NCBI GenBank assembly: GCA_017544835.1 | Contig: JAFYDI010000023.1 | Span: 32,206 to 96,205 of the forward strand | Source: Lachnospiraceae bacterium | GTDB taxonomy: Bacteria; Bacillota; Clostridia; Lachnospirales; Lachnospiraceae | Direction: 5' to 3' | Length of the DNA: 64,000 nucleotides | Part shown: piece after piece, positions 1,991-13,944 of the stretch | Layout of the letters: each line of letters begins with the position of its first letter | Position numbering within the stretch: the stretch's first letter is position 1 | Made by a program: the position numbers and the translations under genes | The notes under the pieces: model-generated | The model's database searches: none | Told to the model about the DNA's origin: nothing | What the model saw: the letters and a program-made list of their open reading frames with translations, nothing else

Positions 1991-3226
1991 ATGCGAGAAC
2001 CGTCATACATGATTGTCATACCGGAGAAGCAGGACGATATTCACGATCCGGGGGTATTTCTTAGTAATCTTGAGAAATCTGACTTTATCACACTTACCGA
2101 TACCAATATGGACGAGGGACGCGGCCTTATTATCGACTTAAGTGTCGAGGACCGCACTTATAAGTTATGCGTTTATCCTACCATGGTGCAGATTCCTAAC
2201 TATGTACGCTCAATTCATTCTTTTTCGAGGAAAGAGTCGGAGAAGCTTGATGCGGCGGAATCGGGCCTTGCGGTGACTATGGACTTTTCTGGTGATACCG
2301 CCAGATGTTTCCATGACCAGTTAAGAATCATCGATGCCATGTTTCCCGAAATTCTCGCGGTGCTTGACTGCCCTTCGGAGAAGATTTTATCAGGCAAATG
2401 GGTAGCGCTTGCGGCAGGTTCCAAGACGCTTCCTTCGCCGAGATATCTATTTACCGTGCAGGCAGTTTCGGACGAATCGGGAGAGGTATGGCTTCATTCC
2501 CACGGACTTAAGCGTGCGGGGATGTATGAGCTTGAAATCCTCGGTTCCGATGAAGACAATTACAATACACACTATCAGATTATAGAGACCTTTGCGTATC
2601 GAATGTTAGAAAGCGGCGGCAGCATATTCCCGGGCGACCCTGTGTATCTTGGGCAGGCTGCGGGACATTACCTTGTTGGTACGGCTGTTGACTGGAAGGA
2701 AGCGCTTCAGTACTACCCGAATATTAAAGTCGGTACCGAGGAAGACAGAGAAGACGGCGTCCACGATGATGACACCTGTGTAATCATGATGTATCGTAAC
2801 ACTGATGATGCCGAGAAGCGTAATTACACGCAGGTTCAGGCATTTAATCCGCTTCTTAAGCAAAATCCCGTATTCTTACTTTCCAATCAGGAGACGGAGA
2901 GGATGAAGAGCCTTGCCATAGAGAGATTTTCTTTTGCCGAGAAAGGCTTTAAGAACAAGGACAATGTAGTAATCGTCAAGATTGGTATTATTACCGACAA
3001 GGAACATTGGGACGGTGATACTCCGCAGAGAGAGCATTTATGGTTCGACCTTAAAGAGGTAAGAGAGGACGGAATAGTAGCCGAGCTTACCAACGAGCCT
3101 TACTACATTTCGGGGCTTAAGAAAGGTGATACCGCTTTGTACCCTTACGAAGACATAACAGACTGGATTATATACACTCCCGAGGGACGTATTACTCCCG
3201 ACGACGTATATTTATATCATGAATAA
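1991..3226 (+). CDS. hypothetical cytoplasmic protein (C-terminal region resembles YegJ/DUF2314-type domain)
   Basis: 411-aa ORF with AGGGG RBS-like sequence upstream. C-terminal 'WFDLKEV...AELTNEPYYISGLKKGD...EDITDWIIY' resembles the DUF2314 family from memory. No catalytic motif identified. Confidence 0.45.
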   Translation: MREPSYMIVIPEKQDDIHDPGVFLSNLEKSDFITLTDTNMDEGRGLIIDLSVEDRTYKLCVYPTMVQIPNYVRSIHSFSRKESEKLDAAESGLAVTMDFSGDTARCFHDQLRIIDAMFPEILAVLDCPSEKILSGKWVALAAGSKTLPSPRYLFTVQAVSDESGEVWLHSHGLKRAGMYELEILGSDEDNYNTHYQIIETFAYRMLESGGSIFPGDPVYLGQAAGHYLVGTAVDWKEALQYYPNIKVGTEEDREDGVHDDDTCVIMMYRNTDDAEKRNYTQVQAFNPLLKQNPVFLLSNQETERMKSLAIERFSFAEKGFKNKDNVVIVKIGIITDKEHWDGDTPQREHLWFDLKEVREDGIVAELTNEPYYISGLKKGDTALYPYEDITDWIIYTPEGRITPDDVYLYHE

Positions 3227-3272: not shown

Positions 3273-4001
3273 TTATAATTCGTATTTCGATTTCTTTTTA
3301 TTGATTTCGTTCATGTACGCGGCAGTTATCATACCGGAAGGAAGCGCGATTACCGCTACGCCTACAAGAGCGGATACCATGGTGATTAAGCGGCCCAAAT
3401 CGGTCTTTGGATATATGTCGCCGTAACCAATGGTGGTGATGGAAATCGTAGCCCAGTACAGTGCATCGAAGAAGGTTTCAAACAGCGTGGGCTCAAGCTG
3501 GAAGATTAACATCGCCGACACGAATATATATATAGTGATGAGTACCAGTACCGCCAGAAGCTGCTTCTTAACTTTTCTGAGCACATTGGCGATTATAACA
3601 GTGGTCTTAGAGTAGCGTACAAGTTTCGCTATTCGGAATACCCTGAAAAGTTTAAGGAGCTTAATAAGCGACGAAACCGGTAAGAACAGCGACACAATCG
3701 GGACTATCGACAGAAGATCGAGTATCGCAAGAGGGGTAAAAATATAAGCGATATAAGCTTTTATGCTCTTATAGCCCATCTTATAGTCTGCGGTATATAC
3801 TCGGGCGCAATAGTCTATTACGAATATTATAACCGTAAGTATCTCAATGAGCGTTGTATATGTATTTTCGCTTTTAAGCATCAGAGGAACCATTCCGACG
3901 AGTACGGCGGTACCCATAAGCACGTCGTAGGCTTTACTGGAGGCGTCTCCGGTACTTGAAGCTTCTATTACTTCGTAGATTCTTCTTTTGAAATCATACA
4001 T
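3273..4001 (-). CDS. voltage-gated K+ channel-family ion transport protein
   Basis: Selectivity-filter signature TTIGYGD. S4-like helix with basic residue every third position (FRVFRIAKLVRYSK). Six hydrophobic helices. RBS AAAGGA upstream. Confidence 0.8.
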   Translation of the reverse strand: MYDFKRRIYEVIEASSTGDASSKAYDVLMGTAVLVGMVPLMLKSENTYTTLIEILTVIIFVIDYCARVYTADYKMGYKSIKAYIAYIFTPLAILDLLSIVPIVSLFLPVSSLIKLLKLFRVFRIAKLVRYSKTTVIIANVLRKVKKQLLAVLVLITIYIFVSAMLIFQLEPTLFETFFDALYWATISITTIGYGDIYPKTDLGRLITMVSALVGVAVIALPSGMITAAYMNEINKKKSKYEL

Positions 4002-8548: not shown

Positions 8549-9988
8549 ATGAAGGACGGAAAAAAGGTAAGAAATCCTTTGACAAGGACAATAATCATAG
8601 GCGGCATTATCATGGCTGCTATTTTTGGATTGGCAGTGTCAGGGCTTTCGTATAAGATTTTTGAAAGACGAATGATGAGCCTTTATACGAAGCACATTAC
8701 AGACATTATGAATCTTACGCTTGCCAATATTGATACGGACGATTTGCGATATTGTATTGAGACAAGGGAACCTACCGACAAGTTCAAAGAACTGACTGCT
8801 TATGTGGATCAGGTAAGAATCAATTACGGGTTGTCGACCATAACGATAGTGTATCCCGAGAAAGTCGGGGATAAAGTTGAGATTATGCAGGTTGTTTCCG
8901 GTCTTTACCCGGAAGAACGATACGGAGATTCCAGAAAGGACATTCCGCTTCCGCTCTTAGGCGACTACATTACGGATTTCCTTCCTCCGGGATTCGGTGA
9001 CCAGGTATATGATGAATTTCTGAACCGTTACGACATTAAGTACTCCAAGGAAAAGAATGCATTTGGCAATGACTATTATGCCGCTTACACCATAAGAGAT
9101 GCAAACGGTTCTCCTATTGCGATTCTTACGACAAGTGCATCTCTTGACGAGATAGATGCCACGATGCGAGAGTATATGACTGTTATTGGTATTAGCATTC
9201 TTACTTTGGCAGCAGTTTTTGTAATAATTATGGTGGAATGGCTCAAGCGAAGAGTAATCAAACCTTTAAAACAGATAGGAACCGTGGCCGATGACTTCGA
9301 AAGAAAGAGCCGTGATTCCAAGGACCCCGAAGCCCTTATTATGGAGAATAAATCGCTTCATAAAGGCGACGAGCTTGAAGCGCTTGCAAATACCCTGGCA
9401 GCCATGTCACTGCATGTTAAGGCATATGTTGAGGAACTTCTTAAATCTGCATTGCAGATGGAAAGCATGCGTGATGAGGTAACTCGCGCCAATAACCTTG
9501 CAATGCGTGACTCCCTTACCGGCGTTAAGAGTAAGGCGGCTTACGACCAGCAGCGTCAGCGCTTAAACCTTGACATTCAGGCAGGCGAAGCGGAATTTGC
9601 CATCGCCATGATAGATATTAACTACCTTAAGCGTATCAACGATAATTACGGTCATGAAAAAGGAAACATCTACATAAAGAAGATGTGTACCATGATATGT
9701 GACGTATTCAATCACAGCCCGGTATTCCGTGTAGGCGGCGACGAATTCGTGGTAGTGCTTATTCACAGAGACTATGAGAACCGTGATGCCCTTATTAAAG
9801 AATTGAAAGATAAGATGACGGAACTGTCCGAGAAAATGGAGCTTGAGGAGTGGTTAAGACCTTCGGCCGCAATAGGACTTGGCGTATACGAGCAAAAGAA
9901 AGACACCGACTGCGACCAGGTATTTAAGCGCGCAGACGATGCCATGTATGAGAACAAGACCCAAATGAAGGCCTGTCGTAAAGTTTAG
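8549..9988 (+). CDS. membrane-anchored sensor diguanylate cyclase (GGDEF)
   Basis: N-terminal TM, extracytoplasmic sensor region and second TM. C-terminal GGDEF domain with RDSLTGV, intact RVGGDEFVVVL and DxxMYxxK end. Confidence 0.85.
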   Translation: MKDGKKVRNPLTRTIIIGGIIMAAIFGLAVSGLSYKIFERRMMSLYTKHITDIMNLTLANIDTDDLRYCIETREPTDKFKELTAYVDQVRINYGLSTITIVYPEKVGDKVEIMQVVSGLYPEERYGDSRKDIPLPLLGDYITDFLPPGFGDQVYDEFLNRYDIKYSKEKNAFGNDYYAAYTIRDANGSPIAILTTSASLDEIDATMREYMTVIGISILTLAAVFVIIMVEWLKRRVIKPLKQIGTVADDFERKSRDSKDPEALIMENKSLHKGDELEALANTLAAMSLHVKAYVEELLKSALQMESMRDEVTRANNLAMRDSLTGVKSKAAYDQQRQRLNLDIQAGEAEFAIAMIDINYLKRINDNYGHEKGNIYIKKMCTMICDVFNHSPVFRVGGDEFVVVLIHRDYENRDALIKELKDKMTELSEKMELEEWLRPSAAIGLGVYEQKKDTDCDQVFKRADDAMYENKTQMKACRKV

Positions 9989-10383
9989 TTAATTAAATCC
10001 GTGAGTTTCTTGTTATAAAAGAAATCGTGAATCAGTTTGTCAAATTCTTCCCACATGGGGAGGGTTTGGCAAACTTTTTTTCTGGTGCAGGCATAGCCTT
10101 TGTCGGCAAGACAGGCAACGGGAGAGAGAGAACCTTCCATAAGCTCGATAATCTCACCCACAGTATAGTCGTGCGGGGCTCTTGTAAGCTTATAGCCACC
10201 ACCCTTACCGCTGGTACCCGCGATAAGACCGCCTGTAACCATATCCTTAACTATAATCTCAAGATACTTCTTAGAAATCTCCTGCCTTTCTGCGATATCC
10301 TTAAGCGGAATATACTTATCGGAATCGTTCTCGGCTAAGTCCAACATAACTCTTAATGCGTAACGTCCTCTTGTAGAAATCAT
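9985..10383 (-). CDS. Rrf2 family transcriptional regulator (IscR/CymR-like, 3-Cys cluster ligands)
   Basis: MISTRGRYALRVMLDLA... wHTH. C-x6-C-x5-C (VACLADKGYACTRKKVC). Divergent from the metY-cysK operon. Confidence 0.85.
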   Translation of the reverse strand: MISTRGRYALRVMLDLAENDSDKYIPLKDIAERQEISKKYLEIIVKDMVTGGLIAGTSGKGGGYKLTRAPHDYTVGEIIELMEGSLSPVACLADKGYACTRKKVCQTLPMWEEFDKLIHDFFYNKKLTDLIN

Positions 10384-10407
10384 GGTAAATACCTCCCAAA
10401 TTCATTA

Positions 10408-10482
10408 TATACCTATTACTCCTAAGGATAAATAGGTAAAAATAAAAATATTTTTCCAATTAACCTATTGACATGGTAGGTA
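10408..10482. promoter_or_regulatory. candidate Rrf2 operator(s): inverted repeats of ACCTATT in the divergent intergenic region
   Basis: TACCTATT-13 nt-AATAGGTA (about 10410..10438). Third half-site aACCTATTgacatggTAGGTa overlaps the -35 of the downstream promoter. Confidence 0.4.
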
Positions 10483-10496
10483 AATGATGTTAACAT
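10468..10496 (+). promoter_or_regulatory. sigma-A-like promoter of the leader/metY-cysK transcript
   Basis: TTGACA-17 nt-TAACAT. Confidence 0.45.
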
Positions 10497-10538
10497 GACC
10501 TTGTTCAAAAGAACAAATAAAACAAGGAGAAAGCCGAT

Positions 10539-10649
10539 ATGAAACACTCAGAAGCTACAGTTAAATACATCGTCATGTGTTGTTGTCGAATGTTTAACTC
10601 CCGGGTATATAGTATGGCCGGAGCTTTGACGTGTCGATGTATACGCTGA
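10539..10649 (+). CDS. candidate Cys-rich leader peptide (36 aa) for transcription attenuation
   Basis: AAGGAGA RBS 9 nt before ATG. MKHSEATVKYIVMCCCRMFNSRVYSMAGALTCRCIR*. Three consecutive TGT codons flanked by ATG codons. Shorter than the track cutoff. Confidence 0.45.
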   Translation: MKHSEATVKYIVMCCCRMFNSRVYSMAGALTCRCIR

Positions 10650-10684
10650 TGCTTTGTAGAGATAAATCTATCTTAAGGTCATTT

Positions 10685-10720
10685 GCCCGGGAGCTTTGAA
10701 TCAGCTTACCGGGATTTTTA
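10685..10720 (+). terminator. leader terminator/attenuator hairpin (CCCGGGAGCT...AGCTtaCCGGGA + U-run) ~55 nt upstream of metY
   Basis: tgCCCGGGAGCTttgaatcAGCTtaCCGGGAtttttatt. An upstream near-duplicate segment GGCCGGAGCTTTGA (about 10616) and CCCGGG (about 10600) offer alternative pairings. Confidence 0.45.
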
Positions 10721-10772
10721 TTACCCAAAATCCCTCACACAAAAAAACACAAGAAAACAGGAGATTACTATC

Positions 10773-12053
10773 ATGAGCGATTACAGATTTGAAACATTAC
10801 AGTTACACGTAGGACAGGAAGAACCCGACCCCGCAACAGACGCAAGAGCGGTTCCGATTTACCAGACAACTTCATACGTATTCCACAACAGCAAGCATGC
10901 GGCAGATCGTTTCGGTCTTGCAGACGCAGGTAACATTTACGGAAGACTTACCAATTCCACCCAGGATGTTTTAGAAAAGAGAATAGCGGCACTTGAAGGC
11001 GGCAGCGCAGCACTTGCACTTGCATCCGGAGCAGCAGCTATTACATATACAATCGAAGCACTTGCAGCTAACGGCGGTCACATCGTAGCTCAGAAGACAA
11101 TCTACGGCGGGTCTTACAACCTTCTTGCACATACTCTTCCCCAGTATGGCATAACCACTACATTTGTCGATGCACACAATCTTGCAGAGGTTGAAGCCGC
11201 AATCAAGGACAACACCAGAGCCATCTACCTTGAGACTCTCGGAAATCCCAACAGCGACATTCCGGACATTGACGCTATTTCAGAAATAGCTCACAAGCAC
11301 GGACTTCCCGTAGTAGTAGACAACACCTTCGGAACACCTTATCTTATTCGTCCTTTCGAGCACGGAGCAGATATCGTAGTTCACTCAGCTACCAAATTTA
11401 TCGGCGGCCACGGCACCACACTCGGCGGTATCATCATCGAGAGCGGTAAGTTTAACTGGAAGGAGAGCGGTAACTATCCCCAGATTGCGGCTCCAAACCC
11501 CAGCTACCACGGTGTTTCTTTCTACGATGTAGTAGGTCCCGCTGCTTTCGTAACTTATATCAGAGCTATTCTCTTAAGAGATACGGGTGCTACAATTTCA
11601 CCTTTCAACGCTTTCCTTCTTTTGCAGGGCGTTGAGACACTTTCTTTAAGACTCGACAGACACGCGGAGAACACCAAAAAGGTCGTTGAGTTCTTAAAGA
11701 ACCACCCGAAGGTAGAGAAGGTTAACCATCCTTCGCTTGAAGATCACCCCGACCATGCACTTTACAAGAAGTATTTCCCTAATGGCGGTGCTTCAATCTT
11801 TACCTTCGACATTAAGGGCGGCAAGGAAGAAGCCTGGAAGTTTATCGACAACTTAAAGATTTTCTCACTTCTTGCCAATGTAGCGGATGTTAAGAGCCTT
11901 GTAATCCACCCCGCATCCACCACACATTCACAGCTTTCAGAGGCTGAACTTAAGGATCAGGGCATCAATCAGAACACCATCAGACTTTCAATCGGTACAG
12001 AGCATATCGATGATATCATTGCCGATTTGGAAAAAGGCTTTTCAGCCATTTAG
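10773..12053 (+). CDS. metY: O-acetylhomoserine (thiol)-lyase / sulfhydrylase (PLP, Cys/Met metabolism family)
   Basis: MSDYRFETLQLHVGQE.PDPATDARAVPIYQTTSYVF... Catalytic-lysine-region motif HSATKFIGGHG. AGGAG RBS. The track ORF begins at an upstream TTG; the ATG is at 10773. Confidence 0.85.
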   Translation: MSDYRFETLQLHVGQEEPDPATDARAVPIYQTTSYVFHNSKHAADRFGLADAGNIYGRLTNSTQDVLEKRIAALEGGSAALALASGAAAITYTIEALAANGGHIVAQKTIYGGSYNLLAHTLPQYGITTTFVDAHNLAEVEAAIKDNTRAIYLETLGNPNSDIPDIDAISEIAHKHGLPVVVDNTFGTPYLIRPFEHGADIVVHSATKFIGGHGTTLGGIIIESGKFNWKESGNYPQIAAPNPSYHGVSFYDVVGPAAFVTYIRAILLRDTGATISPFNAFLLLQGVETLSLRLDRHAENTKKVVEFLKNHPKVEKVNHPSLEDHPDHALYKKYFPNGGASIFTFDIKGGKEEAWKFIDNLKIFSLLANVADVKSLVIHPASTTHSQLSEAELKDQGINQNTIRLSIGTEHIDDIIADLEKGFSAI

Positions 12054-12111: not shown

Positions 12112-13044
12112 ATGGCAAAGATTTACAAAGGAACACTCGACCTCATCGGAAAGACACCCCTCGTGGAGGTTACAAACATTGAAAAAGAACTTGGACTTAA
12201 TGCAACTGTACTGGTTAAGCTCGAATATTTAAATCCCGCAGGAAGCGTTAAGGACAGAATTGCCAAGGCTATGATTGAAGATGCCGAGAAATCGGGAGCA
12301 CTTAAGCCCGGATCAGTAATCATCGAGCCCACTTCCGGTAACACCGGTATCGGTCTTGCATCCATAGCAGCAGCGAAGGGTTACAGAATCATTCTCACAA
12401 TGCCCGAGACCATGAGCGTTGAGAGACGTAATATATTAAAGGCATACGGCGCTGAAATCGTACTTACCGAAGGCGCTAAGGGCATGAAGGGTGCCATTGC
12501 CAAGGCTGAAGAACTTAAGGCTGAAATTCCCGGAGGCTTTATCCCCGGACAGTTTGTTAACCCTGCTAACCCCAAGATTCACAGAGAGACTACCGGTCCC
12601 GAAATCTGGGAAGATACAGACGGTAAGGTTGATATCTTTATCGCAGGTGTAGGTACAGGCGGTACCGTTACAGGTACAGGCGAGTATCTTAAGAGCAAGA
12701 ATCCGGGTGTCAAGGTTGTAGCTTTAGAGCCCAAGGATTCACCTGTATTGTCAGAGGGTCACGCAGGCGCTCATAAGATTCAGGGTATCGGCGCAGGCTT
12801 CGTTCCGGATGTACTTAACACTAAGGTTTATGACGAAGTATTTACAGCGGCCAATGAAGATGCTTTTGCAACTGCTAAGCTTCTTGCCAAGAAGGAAGGC
12901 ATCCTTGTAGGCATCTCCTCAGGCGCAGCACTTTTCGGCGCTATCGAGCTTGCAAAGCGTCCCGAGAACAAGGGTAAGACCATTGTAGCCCTTCTTCCCG
13001 ACAGCGGCGACAGATACTACTCAACACCTTTATTTACAGAGTAA
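12112..13044 (+). CDS. cysK: cysteine synthase A (O-acetylserine sulfhydrylase)
   Basis: [27 protein letters not shown] and GIGAGF motifs. 310 aa. Confidence 0.9.
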
Positions 13045-13062
13045 TACGACTAATGCATTCAG

Positions 13063-13094
13063 GGTTCCGGCCATTTGCTGACCGGAACCTTTTT
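13063..13094 (+). terminator. intrinsic terminator after cysK
   Basis: GGTTCCGG-11 nt loop-CCGGAACC followed by TTTTT. Confidence 0.65.
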
Positions 13095-13113
13095 GACTAC
13101 AAGGAGAATGGGT

Positions 13114-13944
13114 ATGAAACGTGTACTTACAATTCAGGATATTTCCTGCCTCGGAAAGTGCTCTCTTACTATAGCGCTTCCTGTACTTTCGGCAATGGGA
13201 GTGGAAACCGTAATACTGCCTACGGCGGTTTTGTCTACACACACCATGTTTAAAAACTTCACGGTTAAGGATTTATCAGACCAGATTACACCTATCGTTA
13301 ATCACTGGAAGAGTGAGAAGGTGGATTTTGATGCAATTTACACGGGGTATCTCGGAACAATCGAAGAGATTGAACTTATGAAAGGTATATTCAAGGACTT
13401 TAAGAAAGACGGTTCTTTTGTCTTCGTGGATCCCGTAATGGCCGATAACGGCAAGCTTTATGCGGCATTTAACGAAGAGTATGTTAAGAAAAACTCAGAG
13501 CTTTGTGCCGGAGCGGATGTAATAGTTCCCAACATCACCGAGGCTGCTTTCATGACAGGTACCGAGTATCGTGAGGAATACGGAGAGGACTACATTAAGC
13601 TGCTTTTGTCCCGACTTAACGACCTTGGCGCCAAGGTAAGCGTGCTTACGGGTGTATCCCTTGAGAAAGGCAAGACCGGCGTATACGGATATGACAGCAC
13701 GGCCAAAGAATACTTCACATATCAAAACGACCGTGTGGACGCTTCTTACCATGGCACCGGCGACTTGTTCTCAAGTACTGCAGTGGGTGCTTTGTTACGC
13801 GGTAAGAGCTTATATGAAGCCTTCAAGATTGCGGCCGATTACACGGCTCTTACCATCGGGGAAACCCTTAAAAATCCCAAAAAGCCCTGGTACGGAGTGG
13901 ACTTTGAAACCACAATACCTTCTCTTGTGAAGGCAATACAATAA
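13114..13944 (+). CDS. pdxK: pyridoxal/pyridoxamine kinase (PdxK/PdxY family)
   Basis: MKRVLTIQDISCLGKCSLTIALPVLSAMGVETVILPTAVLSTHT... ribokinase-like fold. AGGAG RBS. Track ORF 13075..13944. Confidence 0.8.
   Translation: MKRVLTIQDISCLGKCSLTIALPVLSAMGVETVILPTAVLSTHTMFKNFTVKDLSDQITPIVNHWKSEKVDFDAIYTGYLGTIEEIELMKGIFKDFKKDGSFVFVDPVMADNGKLYAAFNEEYVKKNSELCAGADVIVPNITEAAFMTGTEYREEYGEDYIKLLLSRLNDLGAKVSVLTGVSLEKGKTGVYGYDSTAKEYFTYQNDRVDASYHGTGDLFSSTAVGALLRGKSLYEAFKIAADYTALTIGETLKNPKKPWYGVDFETTIPSLVKAIQ

Follow-up and report, generated by a model that had tools for sequence, protein, structure and literature searches.

This study describes the leader of the metY-cysK operon in a 64,000-nucleotide stretch of DNA from a Lachnospiraceae bacterium (contig JAFYDI010000023.1; this whole stretch is called the window below). 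The leader lies between a predicted promoter and metY and carries a short upstream open reading frame (uORF) with a cluster of cysteine and methionine codons, an intrinsic terminator, and an antiterminator that competes with the terminator for the same strand. We consider it likely that this leader is a ribosome-mediated transcription attenuator that reports a shortage of sulfur amino acids. The observations behind this view are the anatomy of the leader, the conservation of the ORF, its codon cluster and its spacing, the covariation of the antiterminator, the mutual exclusion of the two RNA structures, a predicted fold that depends on ribosome position, and the nature of the target genes. Because the uORF, the antiterminator and the terminator recur together in dozens of independent genomes, the arrangement is more than a product of chance.

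An earlier reading of this DNA from its letters alone (the sequence-only reading) had placed here a promoter of the form TTGACA-17-TAACAT, an AAGGAGA ribosome binding site (RBS), a 36-codon ORF with TGT three times at codons 14-16 and two late Cys codons, and four CCGG-cored segments of which the last pair forms a terminator hairpin followed by UUUUU. All of these features are present where that reading put them. The elements of the leader and the genes it precedes are as follows.

10524..10530, forward strand: Shine-Dalgarno sequence (SD) of the uORF, AAGGAGA, read from the sequence.
10539..10649, forward strand: leader ORF of 36 codons, MKHSEATVKYIVMCCCRMFNSRVYSMAGALTCRCIR and stop, with ATG at 10539 and stop codon TGA at 10647-10649.
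10575..10592, forward strand: codon cluster ATG TGT TGT TGT CGA ATG (M13-C-C-C-R-M18), the proposed stall site; the three TGT codons (14-16, at 10578-10586) are flanked by ATG at 10575-10577 and by CGA-ATG at 10587-10592, the latter ending in the pivot ATG at 10590-10592.
10635..10640, forward strand: second CGA-TGT (Arg-Cys) pair, next to the uORF stop, read from the sequence.
10600-10605, 10616-10629, 10686-10699 and 10703-10714: CCGG-cored segments 1 to 4, namely CCCGGG, GGCCGGAGCTTTGA, CCCGGGAGCTTTGA and AGCTTACCGGGA.
10686..10719, forward strand: intrinsic terminator, formed by CCCGGGAGCU at 10686-10695, a loop, AGCUUACCGGG at 10703-10713, an A, and UUUUU at 10715-10719.
10760-10764: SD of metY, whose ATG is at 10773.
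10773..12053, forward strand: metY, O-acetylhomoserine/O-acetylserine sulfhydrylase (TIGR01326, 636 bits, above the cut-off), the first regulated gene.
12112..13044, forward strand: cysK, cysteine synthase A (TIGR01139 equivalog, 457 bits), the second gene of the operon.

With Cys32 and Cys34 close to the stop, cysteine takes up 5 of the 36 uORF codons, against 1.27% of the codons in the 29 long ORFs of the window. The terminator hairpin has a folding energy of -13.4 kcal/mol (RNAfold) and lies about 45 nucleotides (nt) upstream of the metY SD. A simple consensus terminator scan did not report this hairpin, which RNAfold finds; the miss is probably due to a bulge that interrupts the stem.

Comparison with other genomes places the window leader in a family. 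The metY loci used were 80 from species-representative genomes, and counts out of 81 include the window. CGAATG occurs no more than 450 nt upstream of metY in 52 of the 81 loci, in every case within a short ORF that follows an SD and has a high content of Cys and Met, and it stands exactly 11 nt before CYCCCGG in all 15 independently located cases, the spacing ATG-N5-CTCCCGG being invariant. The peptide of this form, which we call type A, consists of about 12-16 variable residues followed by (M)MCC-R-M-x-N-S-R-A-x-x-M-A-G-A-F and, towards its end, (R-C)-stop; the RNA runs from ATG-N5-CTCCCGG through GCCATTTGCCCGGGAG and a loop to CCGGG and a U-run. The type-A peptide profile retrieved 27 protein clusters from a collection of 5.8 billion proteins, all of them unnamed and free of Pfam domains, with the consensus MCCRM-x-NSRA-xx-MAGAF. 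A pattern scan of metagenomes gave many chance matches in soil and marine contigs, and only matches with a downstream CCGGGAG and U-run were kept; it added about 22 leaders, which brought the number of distinct leaders of type A or of a hybrid form (described below) to 40.

These leaders are consistently built as translated units would be. In each of the 40 an in-frame ATG or GTG follows an SD at a distance of 5-12 nt, and in 39 of them the pivot Met is preceded by 13-19 codons (codon 14-20), the one exception having 8. Over a 32-codon span the uORF frame is free of stops in 30 of 33 leaders, compared with 13 and 9 for the other two frames. The small ORF with its Cys run, on which the sequence-only reading depended, is conserved in the leaders of orthologous upstream regions. 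A covariance model (R1), built from 31 leaders of other organisms and containing neither the window nor its sister strain, finds the window leader at 10566-10729 on the forward strand with 98.2 bits (E = 7.4e-22) over model positions 1-171 of 171. In 20 of 67 loci the same model detects a leader that directly precedes metY, and four of these loci were outside the seed; neither R1 nor the motif searches found a further copy of the leader or of the operator described below within the window. Besides metY-cysK, the genes that follow such leaders encode another Cys/Met enzyme dependent on pyridoxal phosphate (PLP), MetQ/NlpA lipoproteins, SBP_bac_3 binding proteins and ABC permeases, and one of the MetQ/NlpA genes is part of a metNIQ cluster.

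The alternative structure that competes with the terminator was identified from the comparison of these leaders. In the window its strands, and those of a further candidate hairpin, are located as follows.

10598..10607, forward strand: 5' strand of antiterminator helix P1, CUCCCGGGUA, inside the uORF at codons 20-23; pairs with 10684-10693.
10684..10693, forward strand: 3' strand of P1, UGCCCGGGAG, overlapping the 5' arm of the terminator.
10614..10619, forward strand: 5' strand of helix P2, AUGGCC, supported by covariation and present in the minimum free energy (MFE) fold of 10597-10716.
10677..10682, forward strand: 3' strand of P2, GGUCAU, with the same support and in the same fold.
10585..10630, forward strand: candidate protector ('1:2') hairpin, in which GUCGAA at 10585-10590 pairs with UUUGAC at 10625-10630.

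The RNAalifold consensus is a 10-base-pair helix, CUCCCGGGCA/UGCCCGGGAG, whose window counterpart is 10598-10607/10684-10693. In an alignment of 32 sequences, 99% of the P1 cells are paired and three inner pairs covary; the corresponding figures are 73% with five of six pairs altered on both sides for P2, and 77% with four of six for P3. Taken together, the three helices have 86% of their cells paired as compared with 29-49% in slid registers and include 12 pairs with double changes, a level of covariation matched by none of 500 shuffles. A duplex test of cognate against non-cognate partners, in which a leader's own 5' and 3' flanks were compared with those of another leader, gave a permutation p of 1e-4. 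The string CCGGGAG does not vary in any leader, and an equivalent hairpin with a U-run follows it in the relatives examined, the T-run having been a selection criterion in the metagenome set. Since the 5' arm of the terminator also serves as the 3' strand of P1, antiterminator and terminator exclude each other, and the terminator can be disrupted by an alternative pairing as the sequence-only reading required.

This result changes the pairing scheme that had been proposed for the window. The sequence-only reading suggested attenuation in the style of the trp leader, and its leader ORF, its Cys codons and its contest between a terminator and an alternative helix are borne out, but its assignment of the strands is not. 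It had placed the stalled ribosome over segment 1, whereas the comparative data make this segment (10598-10607) the 5' strand of the antiterminator, which must stay free; in the footprint models a ribosome whose A site holds one of the Cys codons, or the ATG after them, would leave it just free, and one that has advanced three codons further would mask it. Pairing of segment 2 (GGCCGGAGCTTTGA) with segment 3 (CCCGGGAGCTTTGA) was considered and rejected: the two are direct repeats, and the data support pairing of segment 1 with segment 3. In the family, segment 2 is part of P2/P3 and of the 3' side of the protector hairpin.

The two exclusive structures are close to equal in energy. For the RNA 10597-10716 the antiterminator has -35.3 kcal/mol and the best fold containing the terminator -35.2 kcal/mol, and the leader would therefore be a balanced switch, decided by the strand that becomes available first. 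We computed equilibrium folds of 33 leaders with the footprint of a ribosome masked and only the RNA downstream of it folded; folds of the whole masked leader kept the terminator, the RNA 5' of the ribosome being able to pair across the footprint. When a Cys codon or the pivot AUG occupies the A site, the antiterminator forms in 30 leaders and the terminator in 3; with the A site three codons past the pivot, the terminator forms in 30, the antiterminator in none and neither in 3. Free RNA gives the antiterminator in 21, the terminator in 11 and neither in 1, and a ribosome at the stop codon gives 18, 14 and 1, respectively. The window leader folds into the terminator as free RNA, into the antiterminator with a stalled ribosome, and into the terminator again with the ribosome at the stop codon. 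In these models the pivot ATG would be the last codon at which a stalled ribosome leaves P1 intact, which fits the invariant 5-nt spacing from ATG to helix.

A protector hairpin is also predicted. Its stem encloses a local hairpin that sequesters the 5' arms of the antiterminator, and in the family the pivot CGAAUG(C) pairs with GCGUUCG, in the region of the P3 5' strand, around a local CCCGG:CYGGG hairpin. It is present in the MFE fold of the nascent 60-nt segment in 26 of the 33 leaders, the window included, and its in-register pairing covers 76-83% of cells as compared with 17-65% when slid; for the helix at 10585-10630, counted in fixed columns, the figures are 76% and 25-51%. We keep it as a candidate because it shows no covariation. 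We also set aside a pairing of the pivot with the conserved CGAUGUUGA close to the end of the uORF, which by eye comes to only about five weak pairs.

From these features a mechanism can be proposed in which translation of the ORF, stalling of the ribosome, the charging of tRNA as the signal and induction upon starvation would all take part. Transcription would begin at a promoter guarded by an Rrf2-family regulator, and a ribosome would load on the strong SD and translate the 36-codon leader. When charged tRNA-Cys, and probably charged elongator tRNA-Met, is scarce, the ribosome would stall within AUG-UGU-UGU-UGU-CGA-AUG (10575-10592), where it would melt the protector hairpin (10585-10590 with 10625-10630) and leave CUCCCGGGUA (10598-10607) and AUGGCC (10614-10619) just beyond its footprint. 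The freed strands would then pair with GGUCAU/UGCCCGGGAG (10677-10693), the antiterminator would consume the 5' arm of the terminator, and RNA polymerase would read into metY-cysK. When the tRNAs are charged, the ribosome would cross the next 19 codons, which make up the 5' half and the apex of the antiterminator, and block its closure; the terminator hairpin (10686-10713 and the U-run) would form and transcription would stop. Across the family, the 19-28 codons that lie past the pivot would hold a moving ribosome on the 5' half of the antiterminator while its 3' half and the terminator are being synthesized.

The composition of the peptides indicates which amino acids would be sensed. In the 33 type-A leaders, with the pivot Met taken as position 0, Cys stands at -2 in 30 and at -3 in 24, and Met at -4 in 21 and at -5 in 14. 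Type-A peptides contain 10.3% Cys and 9.0% internal Met, compared with 1.27% and 3.3% in the long ORFs of the window, which corresponds to an enrichment of about 8-fold for Cys and about 3-fold for Met. Since Met codons are enriched as Cys codons are, and since the target genes are related to Met as well as to Cys, the leader probably senses both sulfur amino acids and not cysteine alone. This suggests that two amino acids are sensed by one codon cluster. Cysteine sensing as proposed by the sequence-only reading is consistent with the conserved Cys codons, but it is probably incomplete: Met is likewise enriched, and where Cys codons are few or absent, the relatives have a conserved peptide in their place.

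Another constant feature is the codon before the pivot. The Arg at this position is encoded by CGA in about 33 of 39 uORFs, a set that was found without reference to that codon, and CGA makes up 5.3% of the Arg codons in this genome; at other conserved Arg positions of the sister peptides CGT, CGG, CGC or AGA is used and never CGA. CGA is read slowly through an I:A wobble pair, and in yeast it hampers decoding of the next codon. We speculate that it could sensitise the adjacent Met or Cys codon here: at both of its sites, ahead of the pivot AUG and ahead of a late Cys codon, the rare CGA may slow decoding of the codon that follows and so sharpen the response. Many uORFs of relatives end in CGA TGT TGA ('RC-stop', CGAUGUUGA), as in loci L007, L018, L028, L029, L148, L153-L155 and L158. 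The second CGA-UGU pair of the window falls inside the antiterminator loop, where it has no obvious role in the attenuation model.

The relatives with few Cys codons belong to a second form, type B, whose peptide is strongly conserved as M-x3-F-[EG]-x-L-[LV]-R-x-N-F-R-x-G-[RV]-M and has its pivot Met at residue 18. Type-B leaders have no antiterminator and none of the helices P1-P3, and few or no Cys codons before the pivot; in most of them Cys codons come after the pivot or the uORF stops immediately there; MKFYFEKLVRENFRNGRMRACCLFC is an example. The type-B uORF lies immediately upstream of metY-like genes, at times only 21 nt away (metY loci L004, L015, L027, L032, L035, L055-L058 and L061-L063), and 80 unnamed protein clusters (P0028-P0107) are of type B or hybrid. 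Codons vary synonymously at L, R, N and G of the type-B peptide, and selection therefore acts on the peptide. Five hybrids (L042, L099, L100, L127 and L151) join a type-B N-terminus to a type-A antiterminator with identical ATG-N5 spacing. These hybrids unite types A and B in a single family, whose members would have their stall point in common and differ in exchangeable output modules. In the window uORF, only C-R-M and the residues encoded by the RNA structure are conserved, and the residues N-terminal to MCC are not.

Several observations weigh against attenuation by starvation at the Cys and Met codons. A plain model of hungry codons does not explain the near-invariant CGA-AUG or the fixed distance from start to pivot, nor does it account for relatives in which Cys codons are absent (L058, L035 and L024). 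The hybrids L099 and L127 carry Cys codons past the pivot, inside the antiterminator arm, and a stall there would partly mask that arm. Three or four regulatory codons are few compared with most classical attenuators. On the RNA side, the core of P1 gives no covariation signal because its seven pairs never vary, and the protector helix shows no covariation in the leader alignment because its 5' sides never vary. At equilibrium the antiterminator prevails in many leaders that are free (21 of 33) or have the ribosome at the stop (18 of 33), and termination in the replete state must therefore be kinetic.

Some of these observations would be accommodated if the nascent peptide in the exit tunnel arrested the ribosome at the R(CGA)-M pivot, the ribosome complex itself being the sensor, an explanation that we regard as unlikely for the window. 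The arrest would be tuned by incoming Cys-tRNA, Met-tRNA, a release factor or a metabolite (cysteine, methionine, S-adenosylmethionine (SAM) or O-acetylserine/O-acetylhomoserine), the expression platform downstream would vary between a terminator/antiterminator and control of the RBS, and MCCCRM would be a derived form with Cys codons in place of the peptide motif. The 80 clusters with the conserved type-B motif, their synonymous variation and the hybrids that link the two types all argue for such a peptide, as do the members that end in RM-stop without a Cys codon (L035 and L058), the use of CGA at the pivot Arg but at no other conserved Arg, and the tight constraint on the distance from start to pivot. 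However, the residues N-terminal to MCC are not conserved in the subtype found in the window, and starvation for a codon is therefore the simpler explanation for this leader; the residues conserved downstream of the pivot coincide exactly with RNA helices, and since CGAAUG is complementary to the protector strand GCGUUCG, its invariance in type A may have a cause in the RNA. Pfam and NCBIfam contain no arrest-peptide family that matches, the ligand cannot be inferred, and a biosynthetic operon needs an arrest that rises on shortage, which a hungry codon in the A site explains more simply. For the family as a whole we put forward, tentatively and with more doubt than confidence, that the R(CGA)-M pivot, which falls at about codon 17-18, and the peptide FxxL[LV]RxNFRxG[RV]M of the sister forms may mark a new and widespread class of arrest peptides in sulfur amino acid metabolism. 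Such a class may act as a sensor much as a riboswitch aptamer does, coupled to a terminator/antiterminator, to RBS control or to RM-stop termination, and the window may hold a member of it.

An RNA-only switch, in which a riboswitch or a protein- or tRNA-binding leader would act on the terminator while the ORF is incidental or serves only to load ribosomes, appears highly improbable to us. The long unvarying strings CGAATG, CTCCCGG and CCGGGAG, the covarying fold of several helices (P1, P2 and P3) and the coincidence of peptide conservation past the pivot with those helices would suit it. Yet no Rfam family matches 10380-10800 above chance level even at E <= 10, no member has lost its strong SD or the start codon that is in frame with the pivot, and that frame stays open. 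The enrichment of Cys and Met codons and the conservation of amino acids through synonymous changes in type B, which lacks P1-P3, are likewise at odds with it, and the apical region varies in length and sequence and therefore offers no obvious ligand pocket. Least probable of all, in our view, is control by the divergent Rrf2 (CymR-like) repressor acting on its operator, in which case the Cys codons would sense nothing and the hairpin would be a partial terminator that works constitutively or an element of RNA stability. The candidate operator palindrome does overlap the -35 box, is unique in the window and is found at many homologous promoters, and the Rrf2 gene is adjacent in several genomes. 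Nevertheless, the leader also occurs with other upstream elements (a LysR-type gene and GATAA..TTATC in L081) and in other genomic contexts, which makes it a module of its own, and the conservation of its ORF, spacing and antiterminator greatly exceeds what a passive terminator would need. A transcriptional layer and an attenuator are moreover compatible with each other. Attenuation by a ribosome stalled at Cys and Met codons thus remains the reading that we prefer for the window.

The region upstream of the leader contains the features of this possible transcriptional layer.

9985..10383, reverse strand (divergent): gene of an Rrf2-family regulator (NCBIfam TIGR00738, Rrf2 superfamily, 118 bits, above the cut-off).
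10410..10438: palindrome TACCTATTACTCCT/AGGATAAATAGGTA, an inverted repeat with 14-nt arms that are 86% complementary; candidate operator.
10462..10484: palindrome AACCTATTGACATGGTAGGTAAA, candidate operator overlapping the -35 box.
10468..10496, forward strand: predicted sigma-70-type promoter, with TTGACA at 10468-10473, 17 nt, TAACAT at 10491-10496 and a TG extension.

The promoter agrees with 10 of 12 consensus positions in a consensus scan. The divergent Rrf2 protein scores below the equivalog cut-offs of CymR and IscR; its gene adjoins the same leader in other genomes too and probably provides a second, transcriptional layer of control on the same promoter. The palindrome at 10410-10438 sits between the Rrf2 gene and the promoter and has TAGGTA/TACCTA half-sites in common with that at 10462-10484, AACCTATTGACATGGTAGGTAAA, which is present once in the window where no copy is expected by chance. 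About 29 of 65 distinct metY loci have ACCTAT-N5-12-TAGG upstream of the gene, a motif that also precedes metQ, and the candidate operator motif ACCTATTGACATAGTAGGT recurs at many metY promoters and one metQ promoter in other genomes, often accompanied by an adjacent Rrf2 gene. From this distribution it is plausible that the palindromes near the metY promoter are an Rrf2 operator. In loci without the leader (L005, L010, L012, L013 and L026) metY is preceded by GATAAG-N5-9-TTATC(A/G)C-N2-3-ACGATAAA, and in L081 a GATAAG..TTATC element at 3900-3930 precedes the leader beside the gene of a LysR-type regulator. This element may be another operator of the sulfur regulon.

Further observations concern the neighbourhood and the variants of the leader. 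A pyridoxamine kinase gene (13075-13944) begins 30 nt past cysK and may be part of the same operon, because both regulated enzymes need PLP. The MetY protein of the window is 99% identical to that of the near-identical strain Lachnospiraceae bacterium YSD2013 (L001), in which the same uORF and antiterminator (2691-3000, compared with 10562-10772 of the window) are joined to another terminator 3' arm, CCCUCGGGC; the replaced arm still pairs with CCCGGG, and about 100 nt more precede metY. The A-rich run-ins to the RBS of the uORF and to that of metY (10506-10530 and 10740-10764) form a direct repeat, 76% identical over 25 nt. In relatives the uORF SD is often lengthened to GGAGGCG(C) (L007, L029, L053, L120, L155 and L004), which is complementary to the conserved GCGCCUC that forms the P3 3' arm in type A and lies just past the pivot in Treponema type B. 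A GGAGGCG(C):GCGCCUC helix could sequester the uORF SD and limit ribosome loading; the SD of the window uORF (AAGGAGAAAGCC) lacks the GGAGGCG extension.

Leaders of this family are found in sequences assigned to Lachnospiraceae, Oscillospiraceae, Negativicutes (Anaerovibrio), Treponema, Fibrobacter and Collinsella. MetY proteins that are 77-93% identical, many of them accompanied by a related uORF, come from bins labelled Treponema, Fibrobacter/Hallerella, Collinsella, Anaerovibrio, Bacteroidales and Aeromonadales (L003, L004, L015, L027, L036, L039, L040, L045, L058, L060 and L064-L080). This wide spread reflects either horizontal movement of metY with its leader among gut and rumen bacteria or contaminated bins of metagenome-assembled genomes. 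In Collinsella (L064-L080) a short uORF, MNCLPRRMPGSCLRPSA and stop, lies about 130 nt upstream of metY with the same AGA-CGA-ATG pivot in another context, and this uORF may represent a third, actinobacterial form of the family.

Searches for known relatives of the leader gave no assignment to a described family. Rfam 15 has zero matches at the gathering threshold across the 64 kb, and at E <= 10 the region 10380-10800 has only chance-level matches to unrelated families (E >= 0.1). The S-box (SAM-I), the T-box and the known amino-acid leader families are excluded by this null result. Neither the type-A nor the type-B leader peptides match Pfam or NCBIfam, and we found no description of this leader family in open-access papers or bioRxiv, although an earlier description elsewhere is possible.

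If the proposed mechanism is correct, a Cys/Met leader-peptide device would be common in anaerobes of the rumen and gut, where it is predicted to act over both synthesis (metY-cysK) and uptake (metQ and ABC transporters). About 100 clusters of 'hypothetical' mini-proteins gain an annotation, and the covariance model makes the family searchable. The conserved peptide variant, together with the invariant rare CGA beside the sensing codons, is in addition a concrete candidate for a new mechanism that would act by an arrest peptide or by a 'sensitised codon'.

In Firmicutes, control of the sulfur amino acid genes is generally ascribed to S-box riboswitches, T-boxes and CymR. Those systems have the same targets as the leader described here (metY, cysK and met/cys transporters), the S-box and the T-box share its terminator/antiterminator output, and, as under CymR control, the window has an Rrf2 (CymR-like) regulator with a candidate operator. 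Unlike the S-box and the T-box, it has no signature in the Rfam search, and its proposed sensor is a translated ORF rather than a ligand- or tRNA-binding RNA. To our knowledge, leader-peptide attenuation is regarded as rare outside Proteobacteria and Actinobacteria.

The closest parallel in design is provided by the classical attenuators (trpL, hisL, leuL, thrL, pheL and ilvL; Trp_leader and His_leader in Rfam), which likewise have an SD-led short uORF with a cluster of end-product codons, a protector (1:2), an antiterminator (2:3), a terminator (3:4) and a U-run, and in which ribosome position picks the helix, as is predicted for the window. However, the window leader matches none of them in sequence or by Rfam model, and it is predicted to read Cys and probably Met, which no classical leader does. 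After the regulatory codons, uORFs of its type go on for about 19-28 codons and span the whole 5' half of the antiterminator, the invariant CGA-AUG pivot is fixed 5 nt from the helix at a constrained distance from the start, and the family is found in Firmicutes and other anaerobes. Leader-peptide attenuators in Firmicutes have been reported as exceptional (PMC2965389).

Attenuation at Cys codons has precedents in other phyla. In mycobacteria, the leaderless polycysteine small ORFs of the 'Cys ribulon' have been shown experimentally to attenuate through their Cys codons (Canestrari et al., bioRxiv 10.1101/834739), and candidate Cys leader peptides are described in other Actinobacteria (PMC1262725). 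As in the window, consecutive Cys codons stand there ahead of a cysteine-metabolism operon, at several loci per genome in mycobacteria, and stalling on Cys limitation raises downstream expression, which is shown there and predicted here. The mycobacterial uORFs differ in that they are leaderless, have no SD, carry the Cys tract near the stop and act by unmasking an RBS without a terminator (bioRxiv 10.1101/834739). The window leader has a strong SD, a mid-ORF Cys tract (codons 14-16 of 36), a Rho-independent terminator, a covarying antiterminator, Met codons and the R-M pivot, and its sequence is unrelated. The alphaproteobacterial uORFC-8-2 motif upstream of cysS in Rhodobacterales, a predicted ribosome-mediated attenuator (Brewer et al. 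2021, PMC8632094), is similar in the pair of adjacent Cys codons that its uORF has at about positions 14-15 and in its terminator with a U-run, but it belongs to another phylum, precedes a tRNA synthetase gene and has its Cys codons inside the first stem.

The type-B and hybrid relatives recall the arrest peptides TnaC, SpeFL and plant CGS1/MTO1 in that they keep a peptide of about 14 residues ending at a fixed codon, which is followed by a sense or a stop codon, upstream of a metabolic gene; CGS1 likewise controls a PLP enzyme of the Cys/Met family. They share no sequence similarity with these peptides, the window peptide has no conserved N-terminal motif, and the present family is known from sequence. 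Thus, compared with all of these systems, the mechanism that we propose would be a known one, and what appears to be new, as far as the sequences indicate, is its specificity, the taxa in which it is found and its unusual invariant features.

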